NCBI GenBank assembly: GCA_016179745.1
Contig: JACPCP010000012.1
Span: forward strand, 789-64,788
Source of the DNA: Candidatus Omnitrophota bacterium
GTDB lineage: Bacteria > Omnitrophota > Omnitrophia > Omnitrophales > JACQLI01
Direction of reading: 5' to 3'
DNA: 64,000 nucleotides
The notes under the pieces are model-generated. The model did no database searches and was not told the origin of the DNA. It was given only the letters and a program-made list of their open reading frames with translations. Each line of letters opens with the position of its first letter. The stretch's first letter is position 1. Of the stretch, positions 612 to 63,924 are shown one piece after another. A program made the position numbers and the translations under genes.

Positions 612-931
612 TGGGGAAGGGCTAGGGCAAACTTGAGTGCGTCTTCAACGGCTTGGAGTTTTCCATTTGAAAGAGTTGTAACCCGCTCTGTCAGTAATTT
701 TTTCGGAACCGTATTAATCACATCCAAATTAACCACACATTTCTTCGGCATCCCGTCTTCAGGGCCAAGGGGAACTTCCACGGGAATATTCCGAATCCTA
801 CTCGTCACCTCAGCTACCGTAACGGCGTCTCTGACCTGAACAGCCCGGTGCCGGGAAAGAATGACCACGGGATGTCGACCAATGGGCCTTGGTAAAGCAG
901 CCCACCAAACTTCTCCTCGTTCCATCACCAC
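608..931 (-). CDS. mazF: MazF/PemK-family mRNA interferase toxin
   Basis: ORF track, 107 aa. The sequence RGEVWWAALPRPIGRHPVVILSRH...VTVAEVTSRIRNIPVEVPL...KKCVVNLDVINTVPKKLL matches the PemK/MazF pattern (RGdiw..f.P..G.E...RPvvVls...vvvp.Ts......p.ev.l). It overlaps the upstream RHH gene by 7 nt. Confidence 0.75.
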   Translation of the reverse strand: MVMERGEVWWAALPRPIGRHPVVILSRHRAVQVRDAVTVAEVTSRIRNIPVEVPLGPEDGMPKKCVVNLDVINTVPKKLLTERVTTLSNGKLQAVEDALKFALALPQ

Positions 932-1182
932 TTCTCCCGTGTAAAGCTCACCAATCCTGCCCGGAACATTGGCTCAATGTCGGCAACACGCTCCGGTTTT
1001 CTTTGGTACCCCTTCACGTAACGCTCTTCAAGCTCCTCTTCTTCCTGTTTTTTAAGCCAAAGCTTCAATGCCTCATCGACGGCAACGCTTCGGGCAAGGC
1101 CAAGCGTATGCCTCCGGCGCTCCACACCCGCAAAAGTGCCTCTTGGCACGCTCACCGCAAATCGAGCCCTTCGTGGTTGCAT
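925..1182 (-). CDS. RHH antitoxin, MazE-like partner of the MazF-family toxin
   Basis: The ORF track lists 925..1191 with a GTG start. ATG at 1182..1180 is the likelier start because GGAGGTG lies 6 nt upstream. FAVSVPRGTFAGVERRRHTLGLARSVAVDEALKLWL is RHH-like. The acidic/aromatic C-terminal tail is typical of toxin-binding regions. Confidence 0.6.
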   Translation of the reverse strand: MQPRRARFAVSVPRGTFAGVERRRHTLGLARSVAVDEALKLWLKKQEEEELEERYVKGYQRKPERVADIEPMFRAGLVSFTREKW

Positions 1183-1218
1183 AGCTTTCACCTCCTCGTA
1201 ATACTCCAGTCTGAAAAA

Positions 1219-1253: not shown

Positions 1254-3746
1254 TTACGCCGCCGATTCAAGGGAGCGGAATTCGGCGCTGAACTGGGCCA
1301 GAAGGGCCTGGTCGGCGGGCAGACTAAGAAGCTCGTTAAATTCGGCGGGCGGCTTGAGGGGATGACTTCCAAATCCGATGAACTGAATCTGAGCTTCCGG
1401 AATTCCCTTCCTTAATAAGGCAAACTCGGCCTGTTTCCGGCTGTCATAAGCCAGGAGCCGGAAAGCTCCAAGCTTCAGTGCACGATTCAACTTCTCAACG
1501 GTTTCACGCTGAACGTCCCTCTCCTCGGACTCGCCTTCGGTCACGACAGCCACCTGGAAGGAATCGCCGTATTGCTTCTTCAATAATCCAAAAAGCGGCC
1601 CCCATTTCTCAAACGCCGCCGCCTTCACAATCATCGCCCGCTTCGCATCTGCGGTCGAGGGAATCCCAGTAGCAAAGGGGACTGTCCCCTGCTTTTCTCC
1701 GGCGGAGGGGACTGTCCCCTTTGCTGCAAAAATTGATCTCCCGGAAACGGCTCTCTCCGCTTCCACAAGCGCCTCTTGCCACGCCCCCGCCTCCGGTGCC
1801 TCCCTCGCCACTGCATCGGGAATCCCGAACCGTTTAATGAAATCACGGCTGAAAATTCCGCCCAGGATCTGCAAGGCTACCCGGACTTCACTTCGATAAT
1901 TTACTCCTTGCGGATCACTTTCGCCTTCCAGCCGATCAGCAGTGAGGTGTCCGAGACTCATAAAGATTGTAAAGCTTGTGCCTTGACCCAAAGTACTATC
2001 AACCTTAATTTGACCGTCATACCCTTCAACATTTTTCTTAACTATACCCAGGCCTTCTCCCGTGCCCTTTATTCCCAACGGCTTTTTGGAAAAGTCCAGG
2101 CGCCAAATGTTTGGAAGGTCCTCCGGTGCAATCCCGTGGCCGGTATCCGAAATACGGATAAAATCACGTTCTCCCTGTCTTCCTGTTTCAATCGTAAGTT
2201 CTTTTCTCTCGCTCTCCTTCATTGCGTGAAGAGCGTTGTTAAAGAGGTTCGTCAACACTTGGATGAATATCTCTTTGTTCATTCCTGACGAAATCGGCTT
2301 GTTGGATCGGCTAACTTTTGCTGTCAAAATCAGGTTCTGCAGATCGACCCCGGCATCTTTCACTGCTATCACCGCCATAAACAAACTTTCCTGAAGAATG
2401 TTGACAAGCCGAGGATCAACTCTGCCCCAGTTGACTTCGGCAAACGTTCTGGTTTTCTTTCTAAGAATTTTATATCCAACACGAGGTTGGTTATTTCCTT
2501 CTTTGCTCCGCACCTCGGCGCGGCGGGCCTTATTGAGGTGTTGACGTATATGTATATTTGATTTATTATTCAGCATATGTTTAAGTTTTCGCCAAAGCAA
2601 CGTGAGAATACGACGAAGGTGGTCGTCAATCTGATCACCGTGGATGCCGCGACGCTTCTGGCTGGGAACCTCTTCAGCCAGAAGGGGTTTCATTTGCTCA
2701 TCTTCATCACGGGATGTATACTCCTTTTGCTTTTTTACCTTTGGGTGCTCTGGCTTGAGCCGGAATGAGGAGAAATGAGATGACGTTACAAGGGCAATGG
2801 ATGGCGATGGGTTCTCTGGTTTTCCTCGCTGCAGTAATAGGTTGCTTTGTACTTCTTGACTGGTTGAGCCGCCGACCCAAGCATTCCCACCACTAATCCT
2901 TCTTTCCATCCGCCGCACCTCGGCGCGGGACGAATCCGGTTTGCCAGTCCCCTCCAACTTTTTGCTCACCGCCGTCTTCTTTTCCTCGATGATCCCGTTC
3001 AATATTTGCGGGACACCCTCCAGCCTATGAGCTGTAACGCCGTAACCTTGAGCGATATGATGTCGTGCAAAGCTCTGTCCTTCTTCATACCATCCTTGCC
3101 CCTTCGCCAGGCGTATTGCTTCCTCCCCCATCAATCGCATGTCTCCCATCTGCTCAATCTCTCTCGCCTTGACTTTCCCAGAAATATCAGCCCTTGCTTT
3201 CAGTGCTTGCTCGACTTTCAGCAAAATTTGTAGTTCAAGCTGAGCAAAACGATCTCTTACAATTTTCTCGGCGATCTCCGGCTTTTCGCTGATAAAAGGA
3301 AGCAACAACAAAAGAAGGACCCCTTTTAGATCTGACTCCAGATTGAGATCGTTGATCACATCCGCCATCGCAAGAAGTTCTGAAACCTTTTCGTAGCGTG
3401 TCTCGTCAACCAAATGAACATGCTCTTCCGGCGTCCCTTTCCGCAACGGGAAATTCTCAATAAGCCACGCAAGGGCCGTCCCAAAATCGGTGAATTCCAA
3501 CCTCAGCTGATCCTGGGCCAGCGCCGTCGTAAGCAGCACCGTCAACTGGGCCAACATTCCCTGCTCTAAATCGCTTCGAATCGTTCCTGAATAGTTTGAA
3601 AACGCATCTTTCAGACTAAATGTCTCCGATCCCCTTTCTTTCCCTTCACTCCGCACCTCGGCGCGGCGGCCAGGGCTGGGTCGTTTGGCTAAAGCCTGCA
3701 CTTTGCCCAATAGCTGAAGTGAGAGGATGTGCGTTTCACGAAACAA
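1254..3746 (-). CDS. 830-aa multi-module protein (four punctuation motifs, HATPase_c module, conserved ...LESAA C-terminal module)
   Basis: ORF track (TTG start). The frame is actually open upstream to 3848. It has four in-frame R[SA]EVR copies. Its terminal module is paralogous to the end of ORF 4562..20122. Confidence 0.7.
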   Translation of the reverse strand: MFRETHILSLQLLGKVQALAKRPSPGRRAEVRSEGKERGSETFSLKDAFSNYSGTIRSDLEQGMLAQLTVLLTTALAQDQLRLEFTDFGTALAWLIENFPLRKGTPEEHVHLVDETRYEKVSELLAMADVINDLNLESDLKGVLLLLLLPFISEKPEIAEKIVRDRFAQLELQILLKVEQALKARADISGKVKAREIEQMGDMRLMGEEAIRLAKGQGWYEEGQSFARHHIAQGYGVTAHRLEGVPQILNGIIEEKKTAVSKKLEGTGKPDSSRAEVRRMERRISGGNAWVGGSTSQEVQSNLLLQRGKPENPSPSIALVTSSHFSSFRLKPEHPKVKKQKEYTSRDEDEQMKPLLAEEVPSQKRRGIHGDQIDDHLRRILTLLWRKLKHMLNNKSNIHIRQHLNKARRAEVRSKEGNNQPRVGYKILRKKTRTFAEVNWGRVDPRLVNILQESLFMAVIAVKDAGVDLQNLILTAKVSRSNKPISSGMNKEIFIQVLTNLFNNALHAMKESERKELTIETGRQGERDFIRISDTGHGIAPEDLPNIWRLDFSKKPLGIKGTGEGLGIVKKNVEGYDGQIKVDSTLGQGTSFTIFMSLGHLTADRLEGESDPQGVNYRSEVRVALQILGGIFSRDFIKRFGIPDAVAREAPEAGAWQEALVEAERAVSGRSIFAAKGTVPSAGEKQGTVPFATGIPSTADAKRAMIVKAAAFEKWGPLFGLLKKQYGDSFQVAVVTEGESEERDVQRETVEKLNRALKLGAFRLLAYDSRKQAEFALLRKGIPEAQIQFIGFGSHPLKPPAEFNELLSLPADQALLAQFSAEFRSLESAA
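1677..1689. repeat. GGGGAC-T-GTCCCC palindrome, copy a
   Basis: The sequence is ggggactgtcccc, with left arm extended (gcaaaggggac). It is read as K-G-T-V-P in the minus ORF. Confidence 0.85.
1707..1719. repeat. GGGGAC-T-GTCCCC palindrome, copy b
   Basis: The sequence is ggggactgtcccc, with right arm extended (gtcccctttgc). It lies 30 nt from copy a and is read as Q-G-T-V-P. Confidence 0.85.
1881..1895 (-). repeat. punctuation motif copy, peptide RSEVR, codon-diverged
   Basis: The + strand reads ccggacttcacttcg, which is cga agt gaa gtc cgg on the minus strand. It is in frame. Context NYRSEVRVAL. Confidence 0.8.
1950..2435 (-). other. HATPase_c (GHKL histidine-kinase-type ATPase) module without recognisable HisKA/H-box
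   Basis: N-box LTNLFNNALHA, G1 ISDTGHGI (D codon checked at 2147) and G2 GTGEGLGI are present. No phospho-acceptor His box is seen upstream within the module. Confidence 0.7.
2508..2522 (-). repeat. punctuation motif copy, RAEVR, canonical DNA
   Basis: The + strand reads ccgcacctcggcgcg(g). It is in frame. Context ARRAEVRSKE. Confidence 0.9.
2541..2569 (+). promoter_or_regulatory. putative +-strand promoter (cassette 3)
   Basis: TTGACG (2541..2546), a 17-nt AT-rich spacer, then TATTAT (2564..2569). It starts 18 nt after motif copy 2508. This is an AT-rich island in otherwise GC-rich DNA. Confidence 0.4.
2577..2768 (+). CDS. small (63 aa) hydrophobic-tailed protein, possibly leaderless, antisense to the 830-aa ORF
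   Basis: ORF track. The ATG lies 7 nt after the -10 box. The C-terminal HLLIFITGCILLLLFYLWVLWL looks like a TM helix. There is no homology support. Confidence 0.3.
   Translation: MFKFSPKQRENTTKVVVNLITVDAATLLAGNLFSQKGFHLLIFITGCILLLLFYLWVLWLEPE
2913..2927 (-). repeat. punctuation motif copy, RAEVR, canonical DNA
   Basis: The + strand reads ccgcacctcggcgcg(g). It is in frame. Context SSRAEVRRME. Confidence 0.9.
3651..3665 (-). repeat. punctuation motif copy, RAEVR, canonical DNA
   Basis: The + strand reads ccgcacctcggcgcg(g). The 20-mer tccgcacctcggcgcggcgg is identical to the one at 2507. Context GRRAEVRSEG. Confidence 0.9.
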
Positions 3747-4498
3747 CGTAATCTGCTTATCATAGGACTCAGACCATCTTCTCTCATTTCCGTTGGAAAA
3801 ACCATTTGAAGCGCTAAGTCCCTTGTGATGCCTGCCAATTTTTTCAGTTTATCCTTGAGAGAAACCATATCGGGCCTAAGATCCCTTTGTAACTCTTCTC
3901 TTGTTGCCTTCCGTCCGTCCATCCCTTCCTTAAAAGATTTACCAATCAAATCGACTACTCTTGTAATCTCTCTTTCCCATGCCTCTGCCATCAGCCGCTG
4001 ACGGATAATCCGCTCGCCCTGAGTCTTCAATTCCCTTCCGACCCTGAGACCCTTCCTCTCAGAAGATGAAGTTAATGTTTCTACCTGGCCGGCGGCTTCT
4101 TTGTGGGTCCTCTGCAAGAGTTTCCTCAGGAAACTCTGAACTTTTCTTTGAGAGCCACTCCGCACCTCGGCGCGGGAAAGGGAATTTTCCGGAATATTGG
4201 GAGATGCGCTTTTATCATCAAAAAGTATTTTATTTTTTATATTGACAGGGCCCCTTCTCCCCGTTAGAATCTCCCACGTTATGGATGATAATTTCACGCC
4301 CAGGGAAGTCGCAGTACTGGTGGAGGAACTCTGCAGTGAGTTTCGGACCGTTTCAGAAGTCGTGCGGCCGTTAAGGGAGGATATGGCCGATGTCAAAGAA
4401 CGGCTTACGACTCTTGAATTCAAAGTCCAATCGCTTGACGATGCGGTTCGCCTCTCAATCCCCGGCTTGAACAAGCGCGTTTCCCGCCTCGAAGTCAA
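3689..4498 (-). CDS. 269-aa open frame in phase with ORF 4562..20122 (continuation after a single TAA); N-terminal ~110 aa are the antisense image of the + gene 4281..4511
   Basis: ORF track (TTG start). It has the same codon phase as the 5,186-aa ORF and contains motif copy 4160. The part after the motif (SGSQRKVQSFLRKLL...) has normal composition. The part before it is Ser-rich low complexity. Confidence 0.3.
   Translation of the reverse strand: MTSRRETRLFKPGIERRTASSSDWTLNSRVVSRSLTSAISSLNGRTTSETVRNSLQSSSTSTATSLGVKLSSITWEILTGRRGPVNIKNKILFDDKSASPNIPENSLSRAEVRSGSQRKVQSFLRKLLQRTHKEAAGQVETLTSSSERKGLRVGRELKTQGERIIRQRLMAEAWEREITRVVDLIGKSFKEGMDGRKATREELQRDLRPDMVSLKDKLKKLAGITRDLALQMVFPTEMREDGLSPMISRLRCFVKRTSSHFSYWAKCRL
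4160..4174 (-). repeat. punctuation motif copy, RAEVR, canonical DNA
   Basis: The + strand reads ccgcacctcggcgcg(g). It is in frame. Context LSRAEVRSGS. Confidence 0.9.
4242..4270 (+). promoter_or_regulatory. +-strand sigma70-type promoter (cassette 1) with AT-rich upstream block
   Basis: TTGACA (4242..4247), a 17-nt spacer, then TAGAAT (4265..4270). The upstream block ttttatcatcaaaaagtattttattttttata matches the block at 12610..12641 at 32 of 38 positions. Confidence 0.65.
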
Positions 4499-4511
4499 AG
4501 CCGGGATCTGA
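4281..4511 (+). CDS. small (76 aa) coiled-coil protein, paralogue of 12714..13154; near-leaderless
   Basis: The ATG lies 10 nt after the -10 box. MDDNFTPREVAVLVEELCSEFRTVSEVV...LEFKVQSLDDAV aligns with MDAYTVTEVGTLLEEIRTDVKRIAEG... of the second cassette. It is convergent with the end of ORF 4562..20122. Confidence 0.55.
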   Translation: MDDNFTPREVAVLVEELCSEFRTVSEVVRPLREDMADVKERLTTLEFKVQSLDDAVRLSIPGLNKRVSRLEVKAGI

Positions 4512-4537
4512 CTTTCGTCGAACCTCTGACCTGTCCC

Positions 4538-4567
4538 CTTACGCTTCCTTACGCCGAAGTCTTACGC
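4538..4567 (-). repeat. three copies of GCGTAAG (minus strand) placing TAA in all three phases
   Basis: The + strand has cttacgc at 4538, 4548 and 4561. On the minus strand TAA falls at 4564 (phase of ORF2), 4551 and 4541, so the three stops are in three different phases within 26 nt. Confidence 0.8.
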
Positions 4568-7500
4568 CGCCGTTTCGAGGGCACGGTAGAGTTCGGCGTA
4601 GCGCTCAAGGGCGCCGGCAAGGACCTCTGAATAATAGGAAAGGTAAGCCTGGGTTTCCCGCTGGACCCTCTGCCAATCGAGATCCTGAATGATCCGCTTG
4701 AGAAGCGCTTGGTCCCCTTCAAGCCCAAGGGCCTCGATTCGGCTGAAATTTCGCAGGCGCACCGCTACTGAAGGTCCTTCGAGCACAAGAATCTGAGACC
4801 CCTCCAGTGCCTGGCTCAATTCAATCGCCACCTTTCGGGCCACGTCCGCCTCCGCTCGATCTTCCGGCGCCACCACAAAAATCTCCGGCAAAGGGGACTG
4901 TCCCCTTTGCTGCCCGAGTGCCACGAGGAACGCCCCCGCCTTTGCAAACATCTCGGGTCCGACCACAAACGCAGTCTTCGCACCCGTCTGTCGTATCGTC
5001 ATTGCGAGGAATCCCGTCGTCACCTCACGAGCAATCGTCCTAAACGCCCCCGCCTCCGGCCCCTCCGCCGCCACCGCTTCCGGAACTACGAAGAGCTCGG
5101 GGAATTTTACAAGATCTTCGGGCCGATAAATTCTCCCAAGCAGCCTCTCTGCCACACGGCGCACTGTGTCAAAGCGAACTTCCGCCCTTTTTTCCGTTTC
5201 CTCGCTACCTCTCCTCTCTTCCTTTTCTTTCTTGGCGGATTCCTGTTGCTTTTCAAGAAAGGATAGTCCCTCGTTAACAAATTTCTTCACAGTTGTTCCA
5301 GTCCCCTTTGGTGAACGCCAAATGGGGAGCTCACGGAATTGCTCACCTGTAAGTGGAGTAAGACCTTTTTGCTTTCTTACACGATTCACGAAATTAAATA
5401 TGTCCACCGGGTTGTCAAATTGTACTTTTCCTTGTTTGTTAAAATGACGCAGGAGTCTTTCCCACGCATCCTTTTTCATTCTTCGTTCACGCTCCCTTTT
5501 TTTCGCCTCCGTCTTCATCCCCGCCCGAGTCTTCACATACTCAAGGTTATTGCTAATCCTTTGCCGCCGAAACCTAAGACGATCGCCCTGCCTTGTGGGC
5601 TGGTCTTGTTGCGCATCAATAATCTGTCGGAACAATTCTTTCTGAGTTCGTTTCTTTTCGTCATCTGTGCCCCGTACCTCGGCGCGCTGGACTGCCTCAT
5701 CTAACGGTAACCTCCCGACTTGGGTGGGTCTTCTTCCAACCATCAGAAGAATCATATTCCCCGACCTCCCCGGCAACCGCTTCGGGGAAATAACGGGGAC
5801 TAGTGACAGTTCCGTAAATCCGGCCCGTCTCCGTAACTTCCCTAGTATCGTCTCACCGATAACGTTCGGGCTGAAAATTTGAGCTGCCGCCTCGGGATAA
5901 ACGTAGTGGAACGCCAGCAGGTGATCCGTAAGACGGGAAGTATTCTTAGTCCGAATCAAATTTTGAATCTCCCCATAATATCTCGGCCATGCTTCGCTCC
6001 CCTCACCTTGAACTTGATTGGGGATCTTTTGCGCCAGAAGAAGAATAGTGCTGGGCTCGCCAATTTCCCCTGTCATCTCCTCAATCACCGGATAATGCTT
6101 CCCCACTTCTTCGTAGGCGTGCCCCATGACTCCTTGGCCACCCCAAAGGGCGTCCACAGAAACCTGAAGATCGGTGATTTTCCGATCCTTCTTATTCAGG
6201 TTGGCGAAAAAATAGGCCACCGCTTCTTTCTTCTCAACCCCTGAACCGGACAAATGAAAAATTTCGACCCAGAGAATTGCTTGCGATTCATTGGTTTGAA
6301 GTCTCCGGATCTGAAATTGTTTCGTCGGCAACTCCTTGAATTCAAATTTAAAGTCTGGGAGCTCTTTTGCGACAAACTGGAACCGTTCTCCCTTCTTTGA
6401 ACTCCATTCGCTTTTGAAGACCGAAGTCGGCCCTTCCCTATTCACTAAGATCCCAAGCGCCTCGGGAGCATAAACCGTGTATGCTTGCGCCCGCACCTCG
6501 GCGCGGGAGGAAGAAGGTCTGAAAAATTTACGGTCGAGGATGCGGCGGCTGCCGTACATCCAGGTGCTGAGAAAAGCGCGGATCAGGCCCCAGCGGCGGG
6601 CGCGATCAAAATAAATTTCACGGCCGCCGACGTGAATGGCGTAATTTTTTTTCGGGACGCCGAAGTAGTCCAAGGCCGCTTCGAGTTCTGCGATCCTTTT
6701 GACACCGTCCGTCGTTCCCTCATCCCGCCCGTCCGAGGCCCCGAAAAAGACAAATTTGTCCACGCCGTTCTTCTTAAAATACTCAATGAGTCGATACAAC
6801 TGCTGCATCGAGGCGTGCACCCCGACGATCCCTTCCTGAAAAATCCCCGTCATCGGCATAAAACCGAGCCTCTTGGCAGCTTTTAAGGCACTCTGAATCG
6901 CCGGACTCCGGGATAACTCCCCGCCTTCGAAGGCCTCATCCGCAAGCACGATGTATTGGTCCACGATACGGCCGGCCCCGAAGGTCCAGAGGTTGAATTC
7001 CGTGCTTCCTTTCTGAACCGGGCTAAAATGCCGCACGACGGCCTTTCCCCGCCTGACTTCCAGATTGACGTGGCGATCGTTTAGATACGGACTTCGTCGC
7101 AGCCTCAGAAGTCCCTCCGGACGCCGGTCGACCCGCCGCTTACCGGTATCCTGATCGATGAAAACAATTTCTCGCAGGCTGCGATCCCGTTCGATTTGCC
7201 GCGTGACAATTCTCCGGCTTCTTGAGAGGGGGTACTGGGGATTTAAGTCCAGCCGGCCGCGAAGACCGGCCGGCCGTCCCGCTGCCGGCACCGTGACGTT
7301 GGGGGCTTCTTGAAGGAGACGCTGAAGCGTCGGCAGGAGGCCCGCGTCCAAGGCCTGCTGGGTGAGGTTAAACGCCGGATCATTTCCCTTTTCACCCTTC
7401 GGCGCAAATCCGTCCGTAATGAGAAAAACGCCCGGCCGGTCTCGCCGTCCCTGAACCCCATCCGGCAGAAAACTTTCTCCCGTCATTGCCTCTGGAATCT

Positions 7501-10500
7501 TAATTCCCAAAAGATGGAGGAGCGCCGGTGCGGCGTCGGCCTGCGTACCCGGGCGATCTTTGAGGGAAATTTTTCTGAAACCGCCACCCCCTTTGACATA
7601 ATCCAGGATCATGAAAGGGACATCCGAGGCGCTGTGCCCCGGCGTGTCTGCCCCATCAAGCCCCCCGTGGTCCGAAATGGCGACCAGGGCCGCACCGGTT
7701 TCCTGGGCCGCCCCGGTCACGATTTTTACGCCGCGATCCAAGGCCCTCAATGTCTCAATGCCGGAATCCCTGCCGGTCCCCTTTTTCGAAACGAGCCGGG
7801 TGACGGTAATTTCCCGTGCCGCAAAGTCCACGGCAAAAAAAACTTTCTCCCGTGCAGGATCGAAATCGGGAAACCGATTCTGAACTCCCAAGGCCGCAAT
7901 CATTTCTCCGGCCCCGACAAAGACTTCTACGCTGTTCGATGCATTCGCCTCTTGTAAAATATCAAATTGAATGTCAAAACCCGCATCCCCCCGTCGAACT
8001 CCCTTAAGTCGGCCGGTCCGCCCGAGTTCTCGAATGCGTTTCGTAAATTCCCGGCCCATAAAAACTTGATCCTCAAATTCATCATCCTGGACCCACAAGG
8101 TCGCCGATTCATCAAGATGCTGGCTCGCCACGTGGCTATTGAGGTCGGCCATGTCCAGATTGCTAATGACATCCCCGTCAGGGCCTGCCCTTTTGATAAG
8201 GTTCGCGTCCGCACGAGCTACGAAATACATACTTCCGCCGGGATAATGCCACAGATCTTTGTTCGGAAGCTGATTGTAGACTTCAGCCTCCGCAAAGGTT
8301 CCGTCTTTCGTTTTCACTTTCACGGTTTGGCGGATTCGGGGCATGGATATGCTTCCATAATCGAGGTTTTCGTGTCGGTAAGGCTTGTCTCGGCCGCGGA
8401 AGGTCTCGATAAAACCGGTTTTCTCACTCCCAAAACCCCAAAAGACTTTCCTCCCGTGCTTCCCCAGCCATTCGACCAGGCCATGACGCACGATGATATC
8501 CGGGATAACGGCTCTCCTGCTCGCCATTAACTCCTTCACATAACGGGTCATCCCGTAAATCGGCATCCCGCGCACATCCGTCGTGTCTTCATAGGCAAAT
8601 TGATTATCCCGGACGGCCCGGACCCACAATTTCTGCCGGTCTTTTCTATGATTCCAGCCGAATAGAAAGCGTCTCTTCCGAGCCTGCGGCGCCAAAATGC
8701 CAACCGGTCCAAACTCATCAATCTGCATGATGGACCGCATCGTCTCGTCAAAATGACCTGCCTTATATTCCCGGGCCATTATTTTCTTTAACTGATCCGT
8801 CGACCACACATACACAACGCCGTCGGCCAACGAATCAATGGGGACCCTCTTTCTCTTGATCTCCTCCCAGAGGGAGGGCGCTTCTTCTTTTAAGACCAGA
8901 GGGTGGTTGCTCAGGCCCTGTTGGTTTCTTGCCTCAAGCGCACGACGGCCCACAAGGCCGAGGCTCGCGGGGCCACGGATCGGCTTTTTACGGACTTCGG
9001 CGCGCTGAGGCCAGCCGTGCTTCCCGATCAGCTCCACGAACTGGACGGGCCCCAAGTTATCGTAAGACGCCCCATCGTCGGGAGTTAAGCCCCCCCGATT
9101 GAGGCCGGCCAGAATTTTCTGGACCGCCGGAAGAACAGGCTTTTCGATTTCAAACTCAGTAAAGAATATTTTCGGGGAACTTGCGTTGACCTTGGGTTCC
9201 AGAATCAAACGGACCTTCGTATTCCCAAACTGTTTTTCCGGCGTTTCGCTCCGCACCTCGGCGCGGGAGGGCGGCCGGCCCCTCCTTAACCGCCCCATCT
9301 CAACCTCACCACGGGAGATGCGGCGGCCATCCCGCCCGGCACTTTTGGAAATGGTACCGATCCGGGTACGCGGCCCCGCAAGAGCTCTGCGGGCCTCGGA
9401 GCGGAAGAAAGAAGGATCCGTTCGATCCCCAGGAAAGTTCTGTTCACTCCAGCTATCAGCAGAAGCGTCTATCACTGAAATTGCCGACCCACGGGGCATT
9501 CCTTGGGGTTCCAGATAAACGGAGCCGTCCGGTTCGACACGGTCAATTCGAAACGAAAAATCCAAGTCACCAGGCTCGCCGCCCAGTAAAAATCGGATGG
9601 ACTCATTGGACCCTACGGTCAGGTTCAGGTGAGTAGACCAATCCTGGGTCGGATCGATTGCCTGCAAAAGGGAGGGCACATCAGCCTTTTTAAAATGATC
9701 CTCGTGGGCAATTTTAACCACCCGAGGCGCATGAATCCGCACCTGAGTCAAAGCTCTTCCACCTCGACTCCTTCGTCTTTCTCTGGGTTGTATCCAAATT
9801 TTCCTCCGAGTGCCGTTGACGATCAGACCGCTGATTTCAAGTTCTTGGCCCTGCGCAACCCTGAAGATCTGCCTAAGCGCTGCGGCCGGTAACTGGGGTA
9901 AAAGCTCTATTTGAGGGTCCGTCCTTCTCAATAAAAGTCCTGGTCTGACATTAGGGGCCGGTCCTTCTGAGAGCGAAATCAAAACCCTTCTCCTGGGATT
10001 CTCTGGATCGCTCACGACCCATTCCTTCCCGGCATCCAATGGCAAGCTCTGTTCCTTCGAAGCTTCCAAGGGCGGAGCGTCCGCCCCTTTCTCATAAACC
10101 GTCACACCCCCCTGAATCATGAAGAAGTTTTGATCAAGATTATCTCCGACACGAACCGCCGCTCTGGACCCTGACGGAAAATGGATTTGGACAGTGCCGA
10201 AGTCTCCGTTTGCTTCTGCCGGATTCCACACAAACATTTCGTTGAATTCCTCTCCGCTCCGCACTTCGGAGCGGAGGGTGTCGGCGGCGGCAAAGGCACG
10301 CCCTTCCTCGAGACGCTCGACCAGAGCTTTGAAGTCGGTAAATTTCGTCTTCTGCGCCACAAGGGTATTTAAACCGAGCGCCTTGACTCCTGACAGAGTC
10401 AACTCAAAGTAACGGAGAGAGTTTGAATCTCCTGGATGTTGTTCCACTTCACGAACCCAGCCCTCTCCTATTTGATCCGGAGAGCCGGTGTGCAGGAGGA

Positions 10501-20122: not shown

Positions 20123-20142
20123 CTCGGAAAAGGGCGGGGCGC

Positions 20143-56100: not shown

Positions 56101-59100
56101 ACGAAGCTGCACTCCGCTTTTCGAATCACGAATCAAAATCCGGTGACGGTCGAACTCGACCTTCACGCCTGGTGGAGTTTTAACTGATTGGTAGGTTCCG
56201 TCGGTTTTGACAATCGTAAGCGGGGGGGGCCACCCTGACCAGCTCCCCTGAGGTCCGGCGACAAGAGGGCCAAACGTATTGTAAATGTCAAAAGAAGGGT
56301 CCGTTAGGCTCCGCCATTGGTTCGTCACTGCGTCGTAAAGTTGAATGGTGTCCGGCAAGAATAATTCCTCGGCGACAGGAAAGAGCTGAGGGTCCCCCAC
56401 CATATGAAGGACCAAGGGATACTTCGAATCGGGATAAATCTGAAGCGCTTGCGCCATAATCCATTCAAGAATGGTTTGTGCAACTCCGTCTTCGTGAAGT
56501 GTTTTTTGGACAGGCACTACCAGATTACTGACCCGCAACCTTTCGGGAAAGACTTCGATGGTCACACCTCCCTCGATGTTCCTGTCCGGTCCAATTAAGT
56601 GATAAAAGTGTGTGCCCTGATTGCTAGACGGATCTCGAACAAGAAGAAGGCCGGTTGGGAATACGGGGTGCGGTAAGTTCACGATCTTCTTAAAATAGCT
56701 CGGCGCAGCCTCGATCGCAGGCGTTTTCCTTGGAGCCTTATCAGGATCTTCATTCAAACGGTGATACTCGTAGTCGCTTCCAATTTTGTTGTGAGCGTCA
56801 TGCAATACGTCGACCGCTGCCTTGACGGCTCGAAACCTAAAATCCCGCTCCGCTTGCGGCACATTTCCAAGATTCTGGGCCATGTCAAACAGCTTCCTGA
56901 CCGTTCCCGAATAGCCGATGTCAGGGCCATAATCCTCGTGATAAACGACGCCGCCCTTCAAATTCCTCATTTCAAGAAAGGGCTTGGTCTTTTCCGTCCC
57001 CAGATTGATTTCAAGAGTCCCCTTGGTCCCTTCAAGGATCATATAATAGGCATTCGTGTGCACCCCCTTCCCTGCACCCAAATCGACCACGACGCTCCCC
57101 ACATTCCCCACCACACGGGCATAAGTCTCCGTCTCTCCGGGGGCGCCCCGATAACGCCAAAAGGAACTTTGATCCTTGTGAAGTTGAAACCGGCCAAAAC
57201 TAATTCCAAATTTTTCGAACAGAAATTCCCCCAACGCCACCAAGTGCACCATCATGTCCATGCCAAGCCCCCCGCCGCTCACGGCAGGATCCACAAGCCA
57301 TTCCCGTCCGTGCTCCACTTCCACATTTTCAATCATCCGTCCCCGCATGGCCCTGAGTTCCCCGAAATTTTCTTCCTTGAGCAGTTCAAACGCCTTTAGC
57401 GCTGACGGGTTGTCAAAAAAGAAGTCGATAGGAAAAATCATATTCTTTCCACGTCGATAGGTGAACTCGAAGGCATCCATATGTTCCGGGAGGCCGAGCG
57501 GCTTTTCCACAAACACCTGCATTCCATGGTTGACGGCCCAGGCCACAATATCCAGATGCGTATCGGGCCGGGTGACTACGAGCACCCCGGCAGGGTCCAG
57601 CGCCAGCACCGATTTCAAAAATGCCGTATCGGGCCCCTCAATCGGACGGTCAGGAACCTGGATATAGGCCGAATACGGGAGACTCATTCTCGCAATTTTC
57701 GCCCCGGCCGGAATTTCCCTCATCAAATCGACGGCAACAAGTTCAATATTGAAAACCTGTGCGAGCCGATTGATGTGTTCTTGGTAAAAGCGGGGAATGA
57801 CCGCGCCAAGCCCTCCATAAACGATTACTTTTTTCTTCGGCAGGGTTCCTTCGCCGGGAAGGTCGAGCTTTGCGATATCGGTAATCGGTGCGATGTGGAC
57901 TGCCGTGGGCGTAACGGGGTTGATTCGAGCGAGGGCACGCACCACGGGCCCTCGAATGGCCGGGTCTTGGACCCAGGAGGTTAAGGCAGGAATTGCGTCT
58001 GAACCGATCGCCGCCAAAACATCTTCAATTCTTTCTTCTAGTAACTTATCTTCCTCACGGAAAGCTTCAATCAAGTGCGGCACCGCAATCACACCCAGGT
58101 GCTTCAGCCCATCGGATGCAACCTCCCGGACCTTTTCATCTGGAGATTTTAGGAAATCGATTAAGACCGGAACGGCCGACACGCCTTGTCGGGTGAGCAC
58201 CCCCTGGACTTCATCACTATTTTTTGATGAGGAGATTAAATTACGAATTCTCTCGTAGGTCGGACTGCCGCGAGTCAGATCGGGAAAGGTCGGGTTCGAT
58301 GAGTGGAACCGTTTTCCTTTTTGAGAACGAAACCAAGCGTTGAGAGAACTTCTGAGCCAAGGTAATTCTTTGTTTCGCCGGTCATTAATTACAAAATCCC
58401 AGCCCTGGATTACTCCTTCTTCATCAAAAGTAATCTTAACGAAACCTTTGTACAAAACTTGATCTGTCAGCGCTTCCCTCGCCACCCCATAGGGCGTTGC
58501 CCTGACATAAAGATCATAAATATTTCCTGGATGTCCAGACGGGCCATACTTCAGAGTAATCGAGTGGTGAGTTGTCTTGCCAAGTTTGGGATCAACCCTG
58601 GCATCAAGCAGGGAGATACTTCTCAGCCTCCCATCCTCCCAATACTCCGGCTGGAGAAAAACCGGAGGCGTGGGCGTTTCGGCGGATCGGATCTCTGAAC
58701 GAGGTTTTCCTCCGCCGGGAGATTTCGCCTCGGCCACATCAATAATGACTTGCCCCCGGAAATGTTCGTCTGGTTTAAGAGTCACCGGGGCCGCTTCCGT
58801 TACACCCCTTTCAAACATCTGGAAGGCATTCGTGGAACTCGTCTGGGATTCAACACTGATATTAGGCAGGCCTGCCTCATCGGGAGGGACCCAAAAGACT
58901 ATGTGTTTGAATCCTCCGCTTTGAGAAATGGTAATCTGTTTTCCTGTTATCGGATCCTGAAGCGTGGATCGAGCAAACCCATCGGAGTCAAACCTGAGCC
59001 CCGTGTAAACATCATCATAGATGTCCCCTCCCAGCACCTTGCTTTCAGCGAGGGCGTGCCTGCCGGTCGCCTCAAGCAACTTCCCGGTAGGAATCATATC

Positions 59101-62100
59101 CTCACGAGCCTCATAAACCTTTGTAACGGGAAGGGTCGCCTTGACATGATTCCGCCAATCCAGAGGCATCCGGAAGTAGGGATGAAAACCGAAACTCATC
59201 GAAAAGTCACTTGTGCCGAGATTGACGATGTCGGTTTCAACCGTCAGCCGATTCCCTTTCAACCGGTAGATCACGGAAATCTTAGCCCGGCCAAAGTAGG
59301 TTTCAATCGGTGTTCCGGTACCGTCATAACTGCTGCGGATAAAGACCCCGTCGTTGGTCATCCCGGTTTCTTCCACGATCCAAGGAACGTGCCAAACCAT
59401 TCCGTGAATCATATGCGTATCAATCCGGTAAACCTGGTGTCCGCTTTCTAACCTCTTCCTGAAATCGGCCACACTTAATTCTTCAAGGAGATTCACGATC
59501 GTTCCGTCGGGCCTTTTAATTTTTCCGCCCTCAATCCGATTAACAAACGGCCACATGATGGGAAAACCTCCAACGGCGTTTAAATCTTCTGGGAAGTAAA
59601 AGATTTCTTCCGGGGTGTCGCCCGTGAACAGCACCTTCATTGAAACAATCGTGTTCCCCCGATCAGGCATTACGACGATCGATGAGTTCGATTGCTTATC
59701 AACTAAGCGATACAACCGGTGGTCATATCCTTTCCGGGTAAACTCTTCGATCCTGAAACTATCCGTTTCTTTAGAATTGAGAATCGATTCCTCTTCCGGC
59801 GAAGGGGCTTCCCCCGGACCCATCACCTGATGAGCAAGGGCAGAGAACTCTTTCGGATCGACACTGGCGCGGCCGACGAGGACGCCGTCAATGCCGGGTC
59901 TTGCAAGAAACAGCCCAACGTTTTCGGCGTTGACTCCCCCGCCGAAAATGATCCGCACCTTCCCCGCTGCTTCAAGTCCGTAAAGGTTGAGGAGGGCATA
60001 GCGAATCAGGCGATGCATCTTCTGGACTTCCTCCGGAGCCGGTTTGAAATGGATCGGCTCGTATTCAATAACAACCCGAGAGAGTTCTTCGGGCTTGACG
60101 CCGTTTAACCGGGCCGCCACCTGTGCCCTCATCCGATCCAGCCGATCTCTTCCGGCATGGTCTACGGCGTTCTCCGAAACCGCGAGCACCACGCCAAACC
60201 CGTTTGCCAGTGCCGCCTTGATTTTCCTGTTAATCACCTCAGGCGGCTCGCTCACCCCGGTCTCAAGCTCATCGCCGCGCACCCGCTCCGAATGTCCCGC
60301 GAGGACATAACGGACCCCGAACTCCCTGAGACTCTCCACCGGCGTCTGGCCTGTCCCCTTCCCCGGCTCGGCAGATGAAATGTCCTGGGCAAGAAGGTCA
60401 ATTGCTTTGTTCCCTTCCAAGACCTTGCTCACCGCTGAAAGGTGGGCATCAGAAGGTCCTATTAGAATCTCTCCTTTTCCGAATCCACGCGGCAGATGCG
60501 CCGAAATCGACCGGGCAAGAACTAATGCGTCTCGTTCCCTAGGTAACAAGGTCTTCCATAGACCCACGAGAACCGGCGCCCGCACTGCCTCCTCTGCCTG
60601 CTTGAGCCCCTCGATTGCTTCCAGATCCTCAAACGTTTTGACCCTCCTGCCCCTCGTTTCCGAGCGGAGGGTCAGGATCATCCGGAGCTGCTGGGCGCCT
60701 GCCAACACATCTTGTTCACTTCCTTCTGAACGCTGGATCGTGATAACGTCAATTTGCAGTAACCGGCTTCCACGGATCAAATCGGTGATGTCGACAACCC
60801 CCTCCGTTTCATGGACATCCTTCTGGAGAGAGACCGTTCGAGCCTCTTCTTCCTTTGATGACCGAGCAAACTGAACGCCGACTCGCTTTCCCCAGAAGTG
60901 CCGGGGAAGGACCAACTCGGCCTTCTCGATCCTCTCCGCCTCAATCCGGGCCGGTTGCACCAGTATAAATCTGTTGACGCCCTCACGGATCTTCTGCTGG
61001 TCTGCCGGCAGCAGGACCGGAAGGTAGGCAAAGAACTGTAACCGCTTGGATTCGGAGGCGCCCTCTCCCCGCACCTCGGCACGAGCTTCGATCGAGGGCA
61101 CCTCGGAGCGGGGGAGCTGCTCGACCCATTCGAAGCGCTTTTGAACCATCTCTTCCCTCGTGAAACGTTCTACGCCGGTCACCGACCCCCAAGTGTATTT
61201 CCTCTCCTGTCGACTCCAGCCGGCCGGCACTGCCACGAGGATTGGGCCACGGCCTTTCCTCCCCTCTTCAAGATTGGTCACGAGCAAGTAGCGTGGCAGG
61301 GTCAGGGCGCCCTGCTTTTCCCGGAAGCGCAACACGATTCCGAGTTCAGCTTTTTCCGGCGCTTGCTCCGTCACCTGCTGCCATCTGAGTCCGTCCTTAT
61401 TAAATTCCTCCTCACTCCCCCGCACCTCGGAACGGGGGAGAGAGTCAATGGCCGCCTGGATCGCGCGCCTCACGGTCGGGTGATTTTCTTCCCTTAGGGC
61501 CTCAACCAAAATCTGACGGACGATTGATACCGCCTCTTCGTTCCGTCTGGCCATCGAAGAAAGGTCTTCTGCCGCACTGACACGGTCCGACACCGCCGGG
61601 TCGTCTAGCAGCCCAGATAACCTTTTTATGACTGCTTCATCTTCTTCGCTAAGCCGCACCTCGGAGCGGGGAGTCTGCTCTCGCAGATAGTTAGCGATTT
61701 CATTCAGGATTGAATCCTGAGAGCCGCCATCCCAGCCGCGCCGGAGGGTGTCGATACCCATCGGATCGATATGAAGCGTTGTCTGCCATTGGCGGGACAT
61801 CCAAATTTGTGGGGGGTTCGGGCCCTTGGGCACTCCGAAGTAAACACGAAAGATGGGCTCTCTCGGACGCCCCTCGTCCGGCCGCCACTGCCGGGTCCCA
61901 TCGACAACGAAATATTCGGGCTCTTCGCCTGGTGCGGGCCGGACATGCCCCATAACCAGTTTTCTTCTAACGGTCTCCTCCTCCACCCGCCTGAGACTTT
62001 GAACCCGCTCCTTGAGGAACTGCAGAACGGTGGCGGCATCGGGGTTGATCGGGGGGGCATGGTTTTCTTCGAGCTGTGCCGGATCCGTGATCAGCCGCGC

Positions 62101-63924: not shown

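Follow-up and report, generated by a model that had tools for sequence, protein, structure and literature searches.

The window analysed here is the whole stretch of 64,000 nucleotides (contig JACPCP010000012.1, positions 789 to 64,788) from a metagenome-assembled genome of Candidatus Omnitrophota. Its minus strand carries four open reading frames, two of which encode giant proteins (Table 1). These reading frames are punctuated by a five-residue signal, Arg-Ser/Ala-Glu-x-Arg, that recurs between the enzyme modules and almost nowhere else. The four ORFs represent, however, only three genes. The window lacks 37 nt that are carried by five independent assemblies and this gap splits one continuous gene of 1085 aa into ORFs D and C.

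Table 1. Reading frames and pentapeptide copies on the minus strand of the window. Residue numbers refer to the respective ORF; L040 is a related locus with an orthologous receiver module.
Position	Strand	Feature	Residue	Remarks
20143..63924	-	ORF A, 14,593 aa		Giant multi-enzyme protein with HEAT, TIM, aldose epimerase, GFO/IDH, PGK, GAPDH, GPI, class II aldolase, metallophosphatase and PGM/PMM domains and about 13 hydrophobic segments; 21 motif copies plus 1 weak variant
4562..20122	-	ORF B, 5,186 aa		Signal-peptide-like N-terminus, conserved ~480-aa domain with weak Tiki/ChaN-superfamily hits, PALP x2, response-regulator receiver and iPGM_N; 16 motif copies
3689..4498	-	ORF D, 269 aa		N-terminal part of a gene that is 1085 aa long and continuous in other assemblies; 1 motif copy
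1254..3746	-	ORF C, 830 aa		C-terminal part of the same gene, with HATPase_c domain; 4 motif copies
63541..63555	-	RAEVR	A 124	
63463..63477	-	RAEVR	A 150	Immediately before a hydrophobic segment
62332..62346	-	RSEVR	A 527	After the HEAT array
62095..62109	-	RSEAR	A 606	
61654..61668	-	RSEVR	A 753	
61420..61434	-	RSEVR	A 831	
61096..61110	-	RSEVP variant	A 939	
61069..61083	-	RAEVR	A 948	
60652..60666	-	RSETR	A 1087	Ends 26 aa before the TIM domain
58687..58701	-	RSEIR	A 1742	Starts 14 aa after the aldose-epimerase domain
55990..56004	-	RAEVR	A 2641	
55315..55329	-	RSEVR	A 2866	
51751..51765	-	RSEVR	A 4054	Ser encoded by AGC
47707..47721	-	RSEVR	A 5402	
43846..43860	-	RSEVR	A 6689	Upstream of the PGK module
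40765..40779	-	RAEVR	A 7716	Between the PGK and GAPDH-type modules
34183..34197	-	RAGVR weak variant	A 9910	
33970..33984	-	RSEVR	A 9981	Upstream of the aldolase modules; first Arg encoded by AGA
26566..26580	-	RSELR	A 12449	Upstream of the metallophosphatase and PGM modules
21997..22011	-	RSEVR	A 13972	Immediately before a hydrophobic segment
21751..21765	-	RSEVR	A 14054	
20938..20952	-	RSEAR	A 14325	Immediately after a hydrophobic segment and before the C-terminal module
18410..18424	-	RSEAR	B 567	First copy after the conserved N-terminal domain and before PALP
17180..17194	-	RSEVR	B 977	After PALP
15992..16006	-	RSEVR	B 1373	
14972..14986	-	RSELR	B 1713	
13166..13180	-	RSEVR	B 2315	
12566..12580	-	RSEVR	B 2515	
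12503..12517	-	GAEVR variant	B 2536	
11342..11356	-	RSEVR	B 2923	
10802..10816	-	RVEVR variant	B 3103	Ends 26 aa before the receiver domain; RSETR at the orthologous place in L040
10259..10273	-	RSEVR	B 3284	After the receiver domain; GAEVR at the orthologous place in L040
9389..9403	-	RSEAR	B 3574	
9251..9265	-	RAEVR	B 3620	
8990..9004	-	RAEVR	B 3707	
6491..6505	-	RAEVR	B 4540	Starts 15 aa after iPGM_N
5672..5686	-	RAEVR	B 4813	
5174..5188	-	RAEVR	B 4979	At the start of the C-terminal module shared with ORF C
4518..4532	-	Extra RSEVR-coding 15-mer		In the B-D spacer, out of phase with D; not in a called ORF
4160..4174	-	RAEVR	D 109	
3651..3665	-	RAEVR	C 28	
2913..2927	-	RAEVR	C 274	
2508..2522	-	RAEVR	C 409	
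1881..1895	-	RSEVR	C 618	About 20 aa after HATPase_c and at the start of the C-terminal module; Ser encoded by AGT

A sequence-only reading of this DNA had counted 42 in-frame copies at module boundaries, and this observation is confirmed and holds well beyond this window. In total 31 in-frame R[SA]EVR copies (15 in ORF A, 11 in B, 4 in C and 1 in D) are present besides 11 one-residue variants, namely RSEAR (four times), RSELR (twice), RSEIR, RSETR, RVEVR, GAEVR and RSEVP, exactly as had been claimed. The residues that follow the motif (Ser 13, Gly 6, Gln 6) and the five coordinates that had been given as examples (60652, 43846, 40765, 33970 and 26566, the low ends of real copies) are correct as well. 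The statement that every copy is in the coding phase is very nearly but not strictly true, since a 32nd exact RSEVR lies in the 63-nt spacer between B and D. One further weak variant, RAGVR, had not been listed. Amino acid composition predicts 0.13 exact copies in 20,878 codons, and in 2000 shuffles the mean was 0.14 and the maximum 3. RSEVR and RAEVR are by far the commonest 5-mers in these proteins. At the level of DNA a search with CGCKCCGAGGTGCGG allowing up to 2 mismatches gives 25 hits against 0.54 expected, all of them on the minus strand and in phase, whereas the plus-strand frames hold no copy of the motif.

None of 38 copies in ORFs A and B falls inside a Pfam stretch although such stretches cover 13.8% of the sequence (P=0.004), and they are often located 14-26 residues from a domain end. 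The same holds in other loci, where the epimerase ends at 988 and RSEVR starts at 999, or GGDEF ends at 1829 and RSEVR starts at 1839. Many domain junctions carry no motif. The flanks of different copies are unrelated to each other, which means that the motif is not part of a longer repeat.

Whether the motif is merely a generic repeat, equally common in short ordinary genes or in other frames, had been named in advance as the observation that would overturn the claim, and we examined this in metagenome loci that encode homologues of the N-terminal domain of ORF B (80 loci; the following counts are from 82 related loci). With the consensus R-[SA]-E-x-R 309 copies are found in 176,945 aa of ORFs of at least 1500 aa (1.75 per 1000 aa), but only 0.066 and 0.042 per 1000 aa in ordinary complete ORFs and 0.033 in the other five frames of the giant ORFs, i.e. 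the density in giant ORFs is 26-50 times higher. The neighbouring housekeeping genes (GcvP, UvrD, PheT, IF3 and others) belong to the ordinary class that is nearly free of the motif, and four unrelated giant HEAT proteins contain 0 copies. Absence of the motif from equivalent boundaries of orthologues, the other result that had been foreseen as contradictory, was not observed: the response-regulator module is flanked by RVEVR and RSEVR in ORF B and by RSETR and GAEVR in L040.

Copies that align between orthologues keep R.E.R with up to 8 of 15 bases changed, while the flanks of shared copies are only 21-38% identical. Serine is encoded by both TCN and AGY and arginine by both CGN and AGR. About 17 of 21 differences in the copies with 3 mismatches are synonymous (counted by hand) against 31% expected. 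Codon usage is nevertheless strongly asymmetric in a manner that remains unexplained. The first arginine is encoded by CGY in 78% of copies and the second by CGG, AGG or AGA in 70% (chi-square p=5e-42), the x codon prefers NNG, and in the window GAG-GTG makes up 22 of 34 Glu-Val pairs within the motif but only 16 of 97 elsewhere.

About nine lineages lack R-[SA]-E-x-R and carry [GA][AS]SLG at comparable places instead. In the slightly wider form [GAS][AS]SLG this alternative (G-type) motif has 46 copies in 31,199 aa of nine to ten lineages, but 1 copy in 171,162 aa of giant ORFs with the arginine-type (R-type) motif and 1 in 153,624 aa of ordinary ORFs. The two motifs are mutually exclusive. 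Its codons vary freely and its first copy sits at the same distance after the N-terminal domain as the first R-type copy does. The lineages concerned cluster in a few neighbouring clades. This G-type motif, together with the nucleotide-level bias and the generality of the consensus, had been missed by the sequence-only reading.

The surroundings of the R-type motif fit an exposed scissile site. Positions -4 to -1 are rich in Ser, Ala and Pro, position +1 is small (150 observed against 90 expected) and depleted in Pro (6 against 15.4), Leu and Arg, and positions +2 to +5 are rich in Glu. On the other hand about 15% of the residues at P1' (50 of 340) would be of the N-degron type (L, F, W, Y, R, K). 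No protease domain was detected in the 20.9 kaa of the window at Pfam E<=0.05 or among conserved neighbours of related genes. The only lead is a weak, sub-threshold Tiki/ChaN-superfamily similarity of the N-terminal domain of ORF B (PF04187 in 12 of 36 members, best E 0.0046), and a PDB profile search found nothing. A crude hydropathy scan places odd numbers of hydrophobic segments between some consecutive copies, which may therefore lie on both sides of the membrane, and this is awkward for a single compartment-bound protease.

R-[SA]-E-x-R is thus a peptide-level, lineage-specific boundary signal of the giant multi-enzyme (“Archaeovorin”-type) proteins of Omnitrophota, located in short linkers (rich in Ser, Ala and Pro upstream and in Glu downstream) between modules of domain size, with a median spacing of about 225 aa. 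In the most likely, although still tentative, mechanism the motif would be presented in extended form to a lineage-specific trans-acting factor, probably an endopeptidase, that would cut at or next to it with Arg at P1 and a small residue at P1'. The giant precursor would then be processed fully or partly into module-sized proteins as in a polyprotein. Sister lineages use a different signal, [GA][AS]SLG, at equivalent places. A concerted, lineage-wide switch of this kind points to a co-evolving reader. What the analysis demonstrates is that the motif is real, in frame, specific to giant ORFs, located at module boundaries, selected as a peptide, conserved at orthologous positions and replaced by a mutually exclusive alternative elsewhere. 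That a partner protein reads it, that this partner is a protease and where the cut would fall are inferences; cleavage itself was not tested. The earlier proposal of a polyprotein cleavage or linker signal with Arg at P1 is thus only partly supported: the boundary signal holds, but neither cleavage nor Arg at P1 was shown. The motif gives a concrete way to test whether these huge chains are cut into separate enzymes.

A short linear docking motif that is not cleaved fits the data about as well, but we consider it somewhat less likely. In this view R/E/R would lie on one face of an extended strand and Ser/Ala plus a hydrophobic residue on the other, and a partner such as the HEAT/ARM arrays of these proteins, a chaperone or an export factor would bind it and thereby fold or organise the giant chain into a compact multi-enzyme assembly. 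This reading rests on the same facts (linker location, peptide-level selection, specificity for giant ORFs and the lineage-wide switch), is in line with the absence of a detected protease and is less troubled by copies possibly on both sides of the membrane. HEAT repeats occur in ORF A and are the commonest domain of Archaeovorins, and HEAT/ARM arrays bind extended basic peptides, as importin-alpha does with the NLS; such binding was not tested here and HEAT arrays were not looked for in the G-type lineages. However, no partner has been identified, the small P1' residue and the depletion of Pro at +1 are more typical of scissile bonds, and the codon asymmetry, which a purely proteolytic role does not account for, is not explained by docking either. 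That asymmetry, the preference for NNG and for GAG-GTG and the location of copies on both sides of predicted membrane segments would rather suit a translation-coupled signal, in which the mRNA or nascent-chain element at module ends would slow or otherwise act on the ribosome, possibly through codon- or tRNA-dependent pausing, through pausing at a Shine-Dalgarno-like GAGG sequence or, at the extreme, through a 2A-like peptide-bond skip, and as it would happen at the ribosome it would work regardless of the final compartment. RNA folding z-scores are slightly lower at the motif (-1.01 against -0.15 in the window, p=0.002; -0.55 against -0.15 in the loci), but this effect is small and is also seen at G-type sites, so it may reflect linker composition. 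This reading appears unlikely since the G-type motif behaves in the same way with free codon usage, orthologous copies tolerate many base changes, and the motif lies only 10-20 aa after domain ends, too close for a pause to let the preceding domain leave the exit tunnel. Moreover, no start codon is enriched downstream, which makes internal initiation unlikely, and there is no resemblance to D(V/I)ExNPGP.

Even less probable is a junction scar or recombination core at the level of DNA, a 15-bp site that happens to translate as R[SA]EVR, at which modules would be inserted or shuffled and the peptide would be a mere passenger. It is true that the copies of the window are strikingly uniform (11 are exact CGCKCCGAGGTGCGG), that the same 15-mer is the commonest across other lineages (20 copies), that module content differs between lineages while the junction motif is shared, that all copies are direct and in one orientation, and that one relic copy lies out of frame in the B-D spacer. 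But there are 242 distinct 15-mers among 315 copies, and variation is concentrated at synonymous sites, the signature of selection on the peptide; persisting amino acid constraint on old, diverged copies, defined as evidence against this reading, is already seen here. Additionally all copies are in one reading phase although none of the three phases of the 15-mer contains a stop codon, G-type codons are free, flanks are dissimilar without inverted repeats or target duplications, no recombinase lies nearby and five independent assemblies show no module polymorphism. A chance or compositional artefact, or a generic genome-wide repeat, is already refuted by the shuffles, by the low densities in ordinary genes and other frames and by the chance-level rate of the matches in actinobacterial genomes; the plus-strand frames hold no copy either. 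The motif is GC-rich and Arg-rich like the host ORFs, and the exact 18-mer also occurs in many high-GC actinobacterial genomes, but there as single copies at the rate expected by chance.

The closest known proteins are the giant proteins of Omnitrophota described as Archaeovorins (West-Roberts et al. 2023, bioRxiv 10.1101/2023.11.21.568195), as multi-enzyme metabolic clusters (bioRxiv 10.64898/2026.06.07.730766) and as giant ORFs (Seymour et al. 2023, PMC10066038). They share with the window ORFs of 5-15 kaa with HEAT repeats, several membrane segments and glycolytic-enzyme domains (TIM, GPI, aldolase, PGM/PMM), and a poor sequence conservation between lineages. In this literature cleavage is treated as an open question and C39 or subtilisin domains are proposed as processing enzymes, neither of which is present in this window; a SecA DEAD-like domain was not found here either. 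None of these papers mentions a recurrent boundary pentapeptide, and no paper in the library searched describes either motif, in agreement with the sequence-only reading, to which no described bacterial system using such a motif was known.

Among more distant systems, viral polyproteins with short protease sites, such as those of flavivirus NS2B-NS3 (dibasic, then a small residue) and picornavirus 3C (Q, then G), are likewise punctuated between functional units of one long ORF by a short, conserved, lineage-specific motif, with related lineages using different site types; the basic P1 and small P1' would also correspond. Here the host is a cellular organism, the cargo consists of core metabolic enzymes, P2 is hydrophobic rather than basic, many junctions lack a site and no cognate protease has been identified. 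In multi-cassette RiPP precursors such as cyanobactin PatE, where recognition sequences flank each core and are cut by PatA/PatG proteases, and in prohormone or alpha-factor precursors with KR sites, identical short recognition sequences repeat at every cassette boundary and co-vary with the processing enzyme, but the cassettes of the present proteins are whole enzymes of 100-2500 aa instead of peptides, without a leader peptide or RiPP enzymes nearby. The P97/P102 adhesins of Mycoplasma hyopneumoniae, processed at S/T-X-F, then X-D/E, are a bacterial precedent for a short cleavage motif that recurs in disordered regions of large multi-domain proteins, yet motif, phylum and cargo (surface adhesins) differ and those proteins are far smaller with far fewer sites. 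Factor Xa-type sites (I-[ED]-G-R, then the cut) and other Arg-P1 endopeptidases (trypsin-fold enzymes, clostripain/gingipain and metacaspases) offer only a resemblance in pattern, as [SA]-E-x-R would place Glu at P3 and Arg at P1 as in I-E-G-R; no such protease was found here, and the additional Arg at P5 is invariant, which factor Xa sites do not require. In-frame DNA repeats such as Rickettsia palindromic elements and REP/MITE are also nucleotide-conserved short elements that recur inside coding sequence without breaking the frame, but the present element comprises only 15 nt without extended or inverted-repeat structure, is always in one phase and one orientation, and evolves under amino acid constraint.

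The minus strand of the window carries four long ORFs, here designated A to D, whose coordinates are summarized in the table together with those of the other features discussed below. Exact matches were obtained to the NCBI proteins MBI2167118, MBI2167120 and MBI2167122, labelled 'Candidatus Omnitrophica/Omnitrophota bacterium' and located on a contig of 64,885 nt, and the small genes at the low end of the window match proteins of this MAG exactly. Independent Logan assemblies from runs SRR121134xx are about 100% identical to the window and thus provide no information on polymorphism. However, all five that cover the site carry 37 nt that the window lacks, and with those bases ORFs D and C join into one gene of 1085 aa. 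This means either a strain deletion between short repeats (gagYcct) or an error in the MAG assembly. ORF B is called intact in two independent contigs.

Coordinates of the ORFs and of the other features discussed in the text (window positions unless stated otherwise)
Feature	Position	Strand	Remarks
ORF A	20143..63924	-	14,593 aa
ORF B	4562..20122	-	5,186 aa
ORF D	3689..4498	-	269 aa
ORF C	1254..3746	-	830 aa
Site of the 37 nt lacking in the window	~3764-3769; L001 986-1016	-	joins D and C if present
RSEVR-coding 15-mer in the B-D spacer	4518-4532	-	out of phase with D
Surroundings of the B-D spacer	4499-4564	-	spacer of 63 nt
C-terminus of ORF A	20146-20175		ends in GVAA
C-terminus of ORF B	4565-4594		ends in ETAA
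C-terminus of ORF C	1257-1286		ends in ESAA
Signal-peptide-like segment and conserved N-terminal domain of ORF B	18443-20122		B aa 1-560
Low-complexity segment of ORF B	12620-13165		B aa ~2320-2500
Toxin-antitoxin-like cluster	375-1191	-	downstream of the giant genes
Overlapping tandem copies in the related locus L183	aa ~1284-1292, 1530-1538, 1716-1724

Pfam places HEAT repeats, TIM, aldose 1-epimerase, GFO/IDH, PGK, GAPDH, GPI, class II aldolase, a metallophosphatase and PGM/PMM in ORF A, two PALP domains, a receiver domain and iPGM_N in ORF B, and HATPase_c in the joined D and C. The window encodes the 'Archaeovorin' or 'multi-enzyme metabolic cluster' type of giant protein already described for Omnitrophota (class 1), with an ORF of more than 10 kaa tiled by many different enzyme domains plus HEAT repeats. 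As for the numerous transmembrane regions of this type, a Kyte-Doolittle scan yields 13 hydrophobic segments in A and 3 in B, but a dedicated topology predictor was not applied and these numbers do not decide the matter. A divergent SecA DEAD-like helicase domain, which is present in most Archaeovorins, was not found in Pfam scans of A, B, C and D.

The observation made by the sequence-only reading, namely that a short pentapeptide recurs in these ORFs at module boundaries, is confirmed. We count the same 31 copies of R[SA]EVR and the same 11 one-residue variants, with an identical variant list and identical counts at P1' (the residue following the motif). Composition predicts 0.13 exact copies and 2000 shuffles never gave more than 3. 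RSEVR (17 copies) and RAEVR (14 copies) are the two commonest 5-mers in these proteins, whereas the next unrelated 5-mer occurs 4 times. At the DNA level CGCKCCGAGGTGCGG with up to 2 mismatches gives 25 hits against 0.54 expected, all of them on the minus strand and in phase, and the plus-strand frames hold no copy. None of 38 copies in A and B lies inside a Pfam stretch (13.8% coverage, P=0.004) and several are found 14-26 residues from a domain end. Information content is confined to exactly five residues with a weak preference at position +1. Some details of the previous account have to be corrected. The four ORFs represent three genes and there is one further weak variant, RAGVR. A 32nd RSEVR-coding 15-mer lies in the spacer between B and D, in a 27-codon open stretch that is out of phase with D, although all copies had been assigned to the coding phase. 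The TAA stop of B and the start of D are in the same reading frame with no other stop between them. This may be a relic of a former B-D fusion or simply adjacency.

The flanks of different copies are no more alike than random in-frame windows, so the unit is the 15-mer alone and not a longer repeat. Within the window this 15-mer is unusually uniform: CGC makes up 24 of 42 first-Arg codons, against a background usage of 16%, and GAG-GTG makes up 22 of 34 Glu-Val pairs of the motif, against 16 of 97 elsewhere. Even so, Ser is also encoded by AGC and AGT, and Arg by AGA and AGG. In a nucleotide-defined search that ignores translation about 17 of 21 differences in the 3-mismatch copies are synonymous (counted by hand), against 31% expected. 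The peptide is therefore under purifying selection and a nucleotide bias is superimposed on it. An interspersed DNA repeat of the REP, MITE or RPE type, for which extended nucleotide similarity or inverted repeats in any phase, on either strand and in intergenic DNA would be typical, does not match these features, and a search of Rfam returned no hit. The near-palindrome CGCNCC-GA-GGNGCG was considered as a hairpin or protein-binding site and rejected because it is not maintained in other lineages, where Arg5 (the second Arg of the motif) is often AGG or AGA, and only 11 of 38 copies fold that way.

Searches of protein databases found no orthologues, in agreement with the reported sequence uniqueness of these proteins. 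The C-terminal module of B gave no hit, the TIM-epimerase module gave none at a cut-off of 1e-10 that was too strict, the 1085-aa gene gave only HATPase hits, and a full HMMER scan with A aa 1-1200 was swamped by HEAT-repeat proteins. A peptide-pattern scan of GTDB genomes found nothing. An exact 18-mer DNA scan of GTDB genomes returned mostly chance hits in high-GC actinobacteria, but two loci were informative. The first, L058 from another Omnitrophota MAG, has 5 copies with different codons in an ORF of at least 2314 aa. The other, L040, encodes a homologue of the N-terminal domain of B, and its receiver module is flanked by RSETR and GAEVR, matching RVEVR and RSEVR in B. An alignment of the two N-terminal domains then retrieved 80 metagenome loci with 26-33% identity in that domain. 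A BLAST of the whole ORF B against the related giant ORFs found only this N-terminal domain to be homologous.

In the 77 B-like ORFs (175,398 aa) the commonest 5-mers apart from those used for retrieval are RSEAR (61), RSEVR (58), RAEVR (53), RSETR (24), RSELR (22), RSEMR (20) and RSEIR (20). The consensus is therefore R-[SA]-E-x-R. Its density is 1.75 per 1000 aa in ORFs of at least 1500 aa (309 copies), but 0.066 in complete ORFs of 300-799 aa, 0.042 in ORFs of 80-299 aa and 0.033 in the other five frames of the giant ORFs. The conserved neighbours are housekeeping genes, and four unrelated giant HEAT proteins have no copy. Also in other loci the copies avoid Pfam domains and often sit 10-11 residues after a domain end. 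Median spacing is 225 aa with an interquartile range of 119-414, which is domain-sized. Where modules align between loci, copies share a column while the 40 flanking residues are 21-38% identical, although global MAFFT alignments of such modular proteins are unreliable. The pattern R.E.R persists through up to 8 of 15 base changes. Two conditions that had been laid down in advance as capable of overturning the observation, a generic genome-wide repeat and the absence of the motif from equivalent boundaries in orthologues, were thus examined: the motif is not a generic repeat and orthologues do keep it at equivalent boundaries.

Nine to ten loci (L152, L153, L173, L175, L178, L185, L186, L187, L203 and L205 of the related set) lack R[SA]ExR and their giant ORFs are punctuated by [GA][AS]SLG instead, the two motifs being mutually exclusive. 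There are 46 copies of this G-type motif in 31,199 aa of these ORFs, whereas R-type giant ORFs have 1 in 171,162 aa and ordinary ORFs have 1 in 153,624 aa. Its first copy lies 65-193 aa after the GGFHT landmark of the N-terminal domain, while the first R-type copy lies 52-200 aa after it. Codon usage is free for Leu and Gly. These loci fall in a few neighbouring clades of a rough NJ tree, and one further lineage (L174) uses RAEKR seven times. A concerted switch across a whole protein is what one expects if a trans-acting, co-evolving factor reads the motif.

The giant ORFs also share a C-terminal tail that ends in x-[SA]-A. Among the related loci L131-L210 most of the 44 large or motif-bearing ORFs that terminate inside a locus end this way (about 34 by hand count, with RSA, ASA, SAA, VAA, TAA and others), and 15 of them end in exactly AA, as compared with only 15 of 397 ordinary ORFs. 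The tail looks like an ssrA tag (LAA) and may be a recognition tail for a protease or an export system. We examined whether [SA]A just upstream of the motif mimics these natural tails, which would place the cut before the motif, but it is present at only 6% of sites.

The sequence context of the motif is polar and asymmetric. Positions -4 to -1 are rich in S/A/P and depleted in acidic residues, position +1 favours small residues (150 observed, 90 expected) with Pro (6 against 15.4), Leu and Arg depleted, and positions +2 to +5 are rich in Glu. This fits an exposed, extended site with a scissile bond after the final Arg, and [SA]-E-x-R resembles the factor Xa pattern I-E-G-R. We therefore rank a processing or cleavage signal highest, but only tentatively and as somewhat less likely than not. 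The anatomy of the motif and its evolutionary behaviour are shown here, whereas the protein that reads it, the cut and its position are only inferred. The earlier interpretation as a polyprotein cleavage or linker signal with Arg at P1 is thus supported in part, its function being unproven. A conserved short motif at the boundaries of functional units is present, as in a polyprotein, but no protease domain occurs in the window or among the conserved neighbours. As the rest of the genome was not covered, this leaves the question of a cognate protease undecided, and cleavage products were not measured here, although a dataset of V. archaeovorus (PXD025008) exists. The only lead is the conserved domain of about 480 aa in ORF B, which follows a signal-peptide-like segment (LAHEAWA before, ETDG after the presumed junction) and is conserved in more than 200 metagenome contigs. 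It shows a weak similarity to the Tiki superfamily (TIKI/TraB/PrgY/ChaN/erythromycin esterase), for which paired His-containing motifs with conserved Glu and Arg are expected: PF04187 (ChaN) matches 12 of 36 members with a best E of 0.0046 and 15 bits against a cut-off of 27.7, and H85, E113-G114, E171, R440 and TGGFHT (with GGFH at 465-468) are invariant. A profile search of the PDB gave no hit, and on these data membership can be neither asserted nor dismissed. It could be a metalloprotease-like domain at the head of the polyprotein. Moreover, a crude hydropathy scan suggests that copies of the motif lie on both sides of the membrane, which speaks against cleavage. A structure prediction with AF2 from a single sequence of the receiver module with both flanking motifs was uninformative (pLDDT 45).

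A docking motif that is not cleaved, bound for instance by the HEAT arrays, fits the data nearly as well, though taken by itself it is rather unlikely. A translation-coupled role is unlikely but is kept alive by one unexplained fact: across lineages Arg1 is CGC or CGT in 78% of copies while Arg5 is CGG, AGG or AGA in 70% (chi-square p=5e-42), motif Ser is almost always TCN and the x codon prefers NNG, for which we have no explanation. RNA-folding z-scores are also slightly lower at motif sites, but this effect is small and G-type sites share it. Internal translation initiation is rejected since no start codon is enriched downstream, even though the GAGGTG within the motif looks like a Shine-Dalgarno sequence. 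A DNA-level junction scar appears very unlikely and is disfavoured by the synonymous pattern of variation, by the 242 distinct 15-mers among 315 copies and by the absence of flank similarity. The most far-reaching reading, which is possible but less likely than not, is that Omnitrophota would express core metabolism, including most of glycolysis, as cellular polyproteins. In this view R-[SA]-E-x-R would be a lineage-specific processing signal with [GA][AS]SLG in the same role in sister lineages, and dedicated proteases would cut precursors of 5-150 kaa into dozens of stoichiometric enzymes, a virus-like strategy of gene expression in a free-living or epibiotic bacterium. In a still more radical version the break would be made at the ribosome, which would account for the codon asymmetry.

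In function the motif most resembles viral polyprotein sites and the repeated recognition sequences of multi-cassette RiPP precursors. It does not conform to kexin/furin-type dibasic sites (K/R at P2 and R at P1), since P2 is V, A, L, T, M or I, nor to separase-type sites (ExxR, with E at P4 and R at P1), since Glu is two residues before the final Arg in all copies. Double-glycine leader processing by peptidase C39 requires GG, GA or GS at P2-P1 and a C39 domain, but the R-type motif has no Gly, the G-type motif ends in L-G and no PF03412 hit was found in the window. The consensus of 2A-like ribosomal skipping peptides, D(V/I)ExNPG-P, is not matched because NPGP is absent and only five positions are conserved. 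While the carrier proteins are known, the motif is not mentioned in the three papers on Omnitrophota giant genes that were examined, in any paper matching RSEVR or RAEVR, or in Pfam, NCBIfam or Rfam, and it is apparently undescribed.

Giant ORFs of 20 to more than 140 kaa are a hallmark of Omnitrophota, and every paper on them leaves open whether they act as single chains or are cut up. Here, a precise signal that can be searched for and mutated is provided, which marks module boundaries across at least 45 independent metagenomic lineages, with a second and mutually exclusive signal in sister lineages. This makes the question directly testable, and the motif can be used to segment otherwise unannotatable giant proteins into modules for structure prediction. 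If processing is confirmed, it would be the first polyprotein strategy for central metabolism in a cellular organism; if it is not, the motif still defines a new inter-module recognition element with an unexplained codon signature.

Downstream of the giant genes the toxin-antitoxin-like cluster holds a 78-aa ORF, a 105-aa PemK/MazF toxin and an 85-88-aa ORF, and is followed by tryptophan-tRNA ligase. The segment of ORF B listed as low-complexity lies between two RSEVR copies, is rich in Ser, Leu and Phe with one strongly hydrophobic stretch (aa 2457-2475), and looks unlike an enzyme module. In locus L183 some copies overlap in tandem and share an Arg, for example RSEARAEIR and RSETRAEAR. Pairs 8-40 aa apart are common, including the copies at aa 124 and 150 of ORF A in the window. 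These would release or delimit very short peptides.
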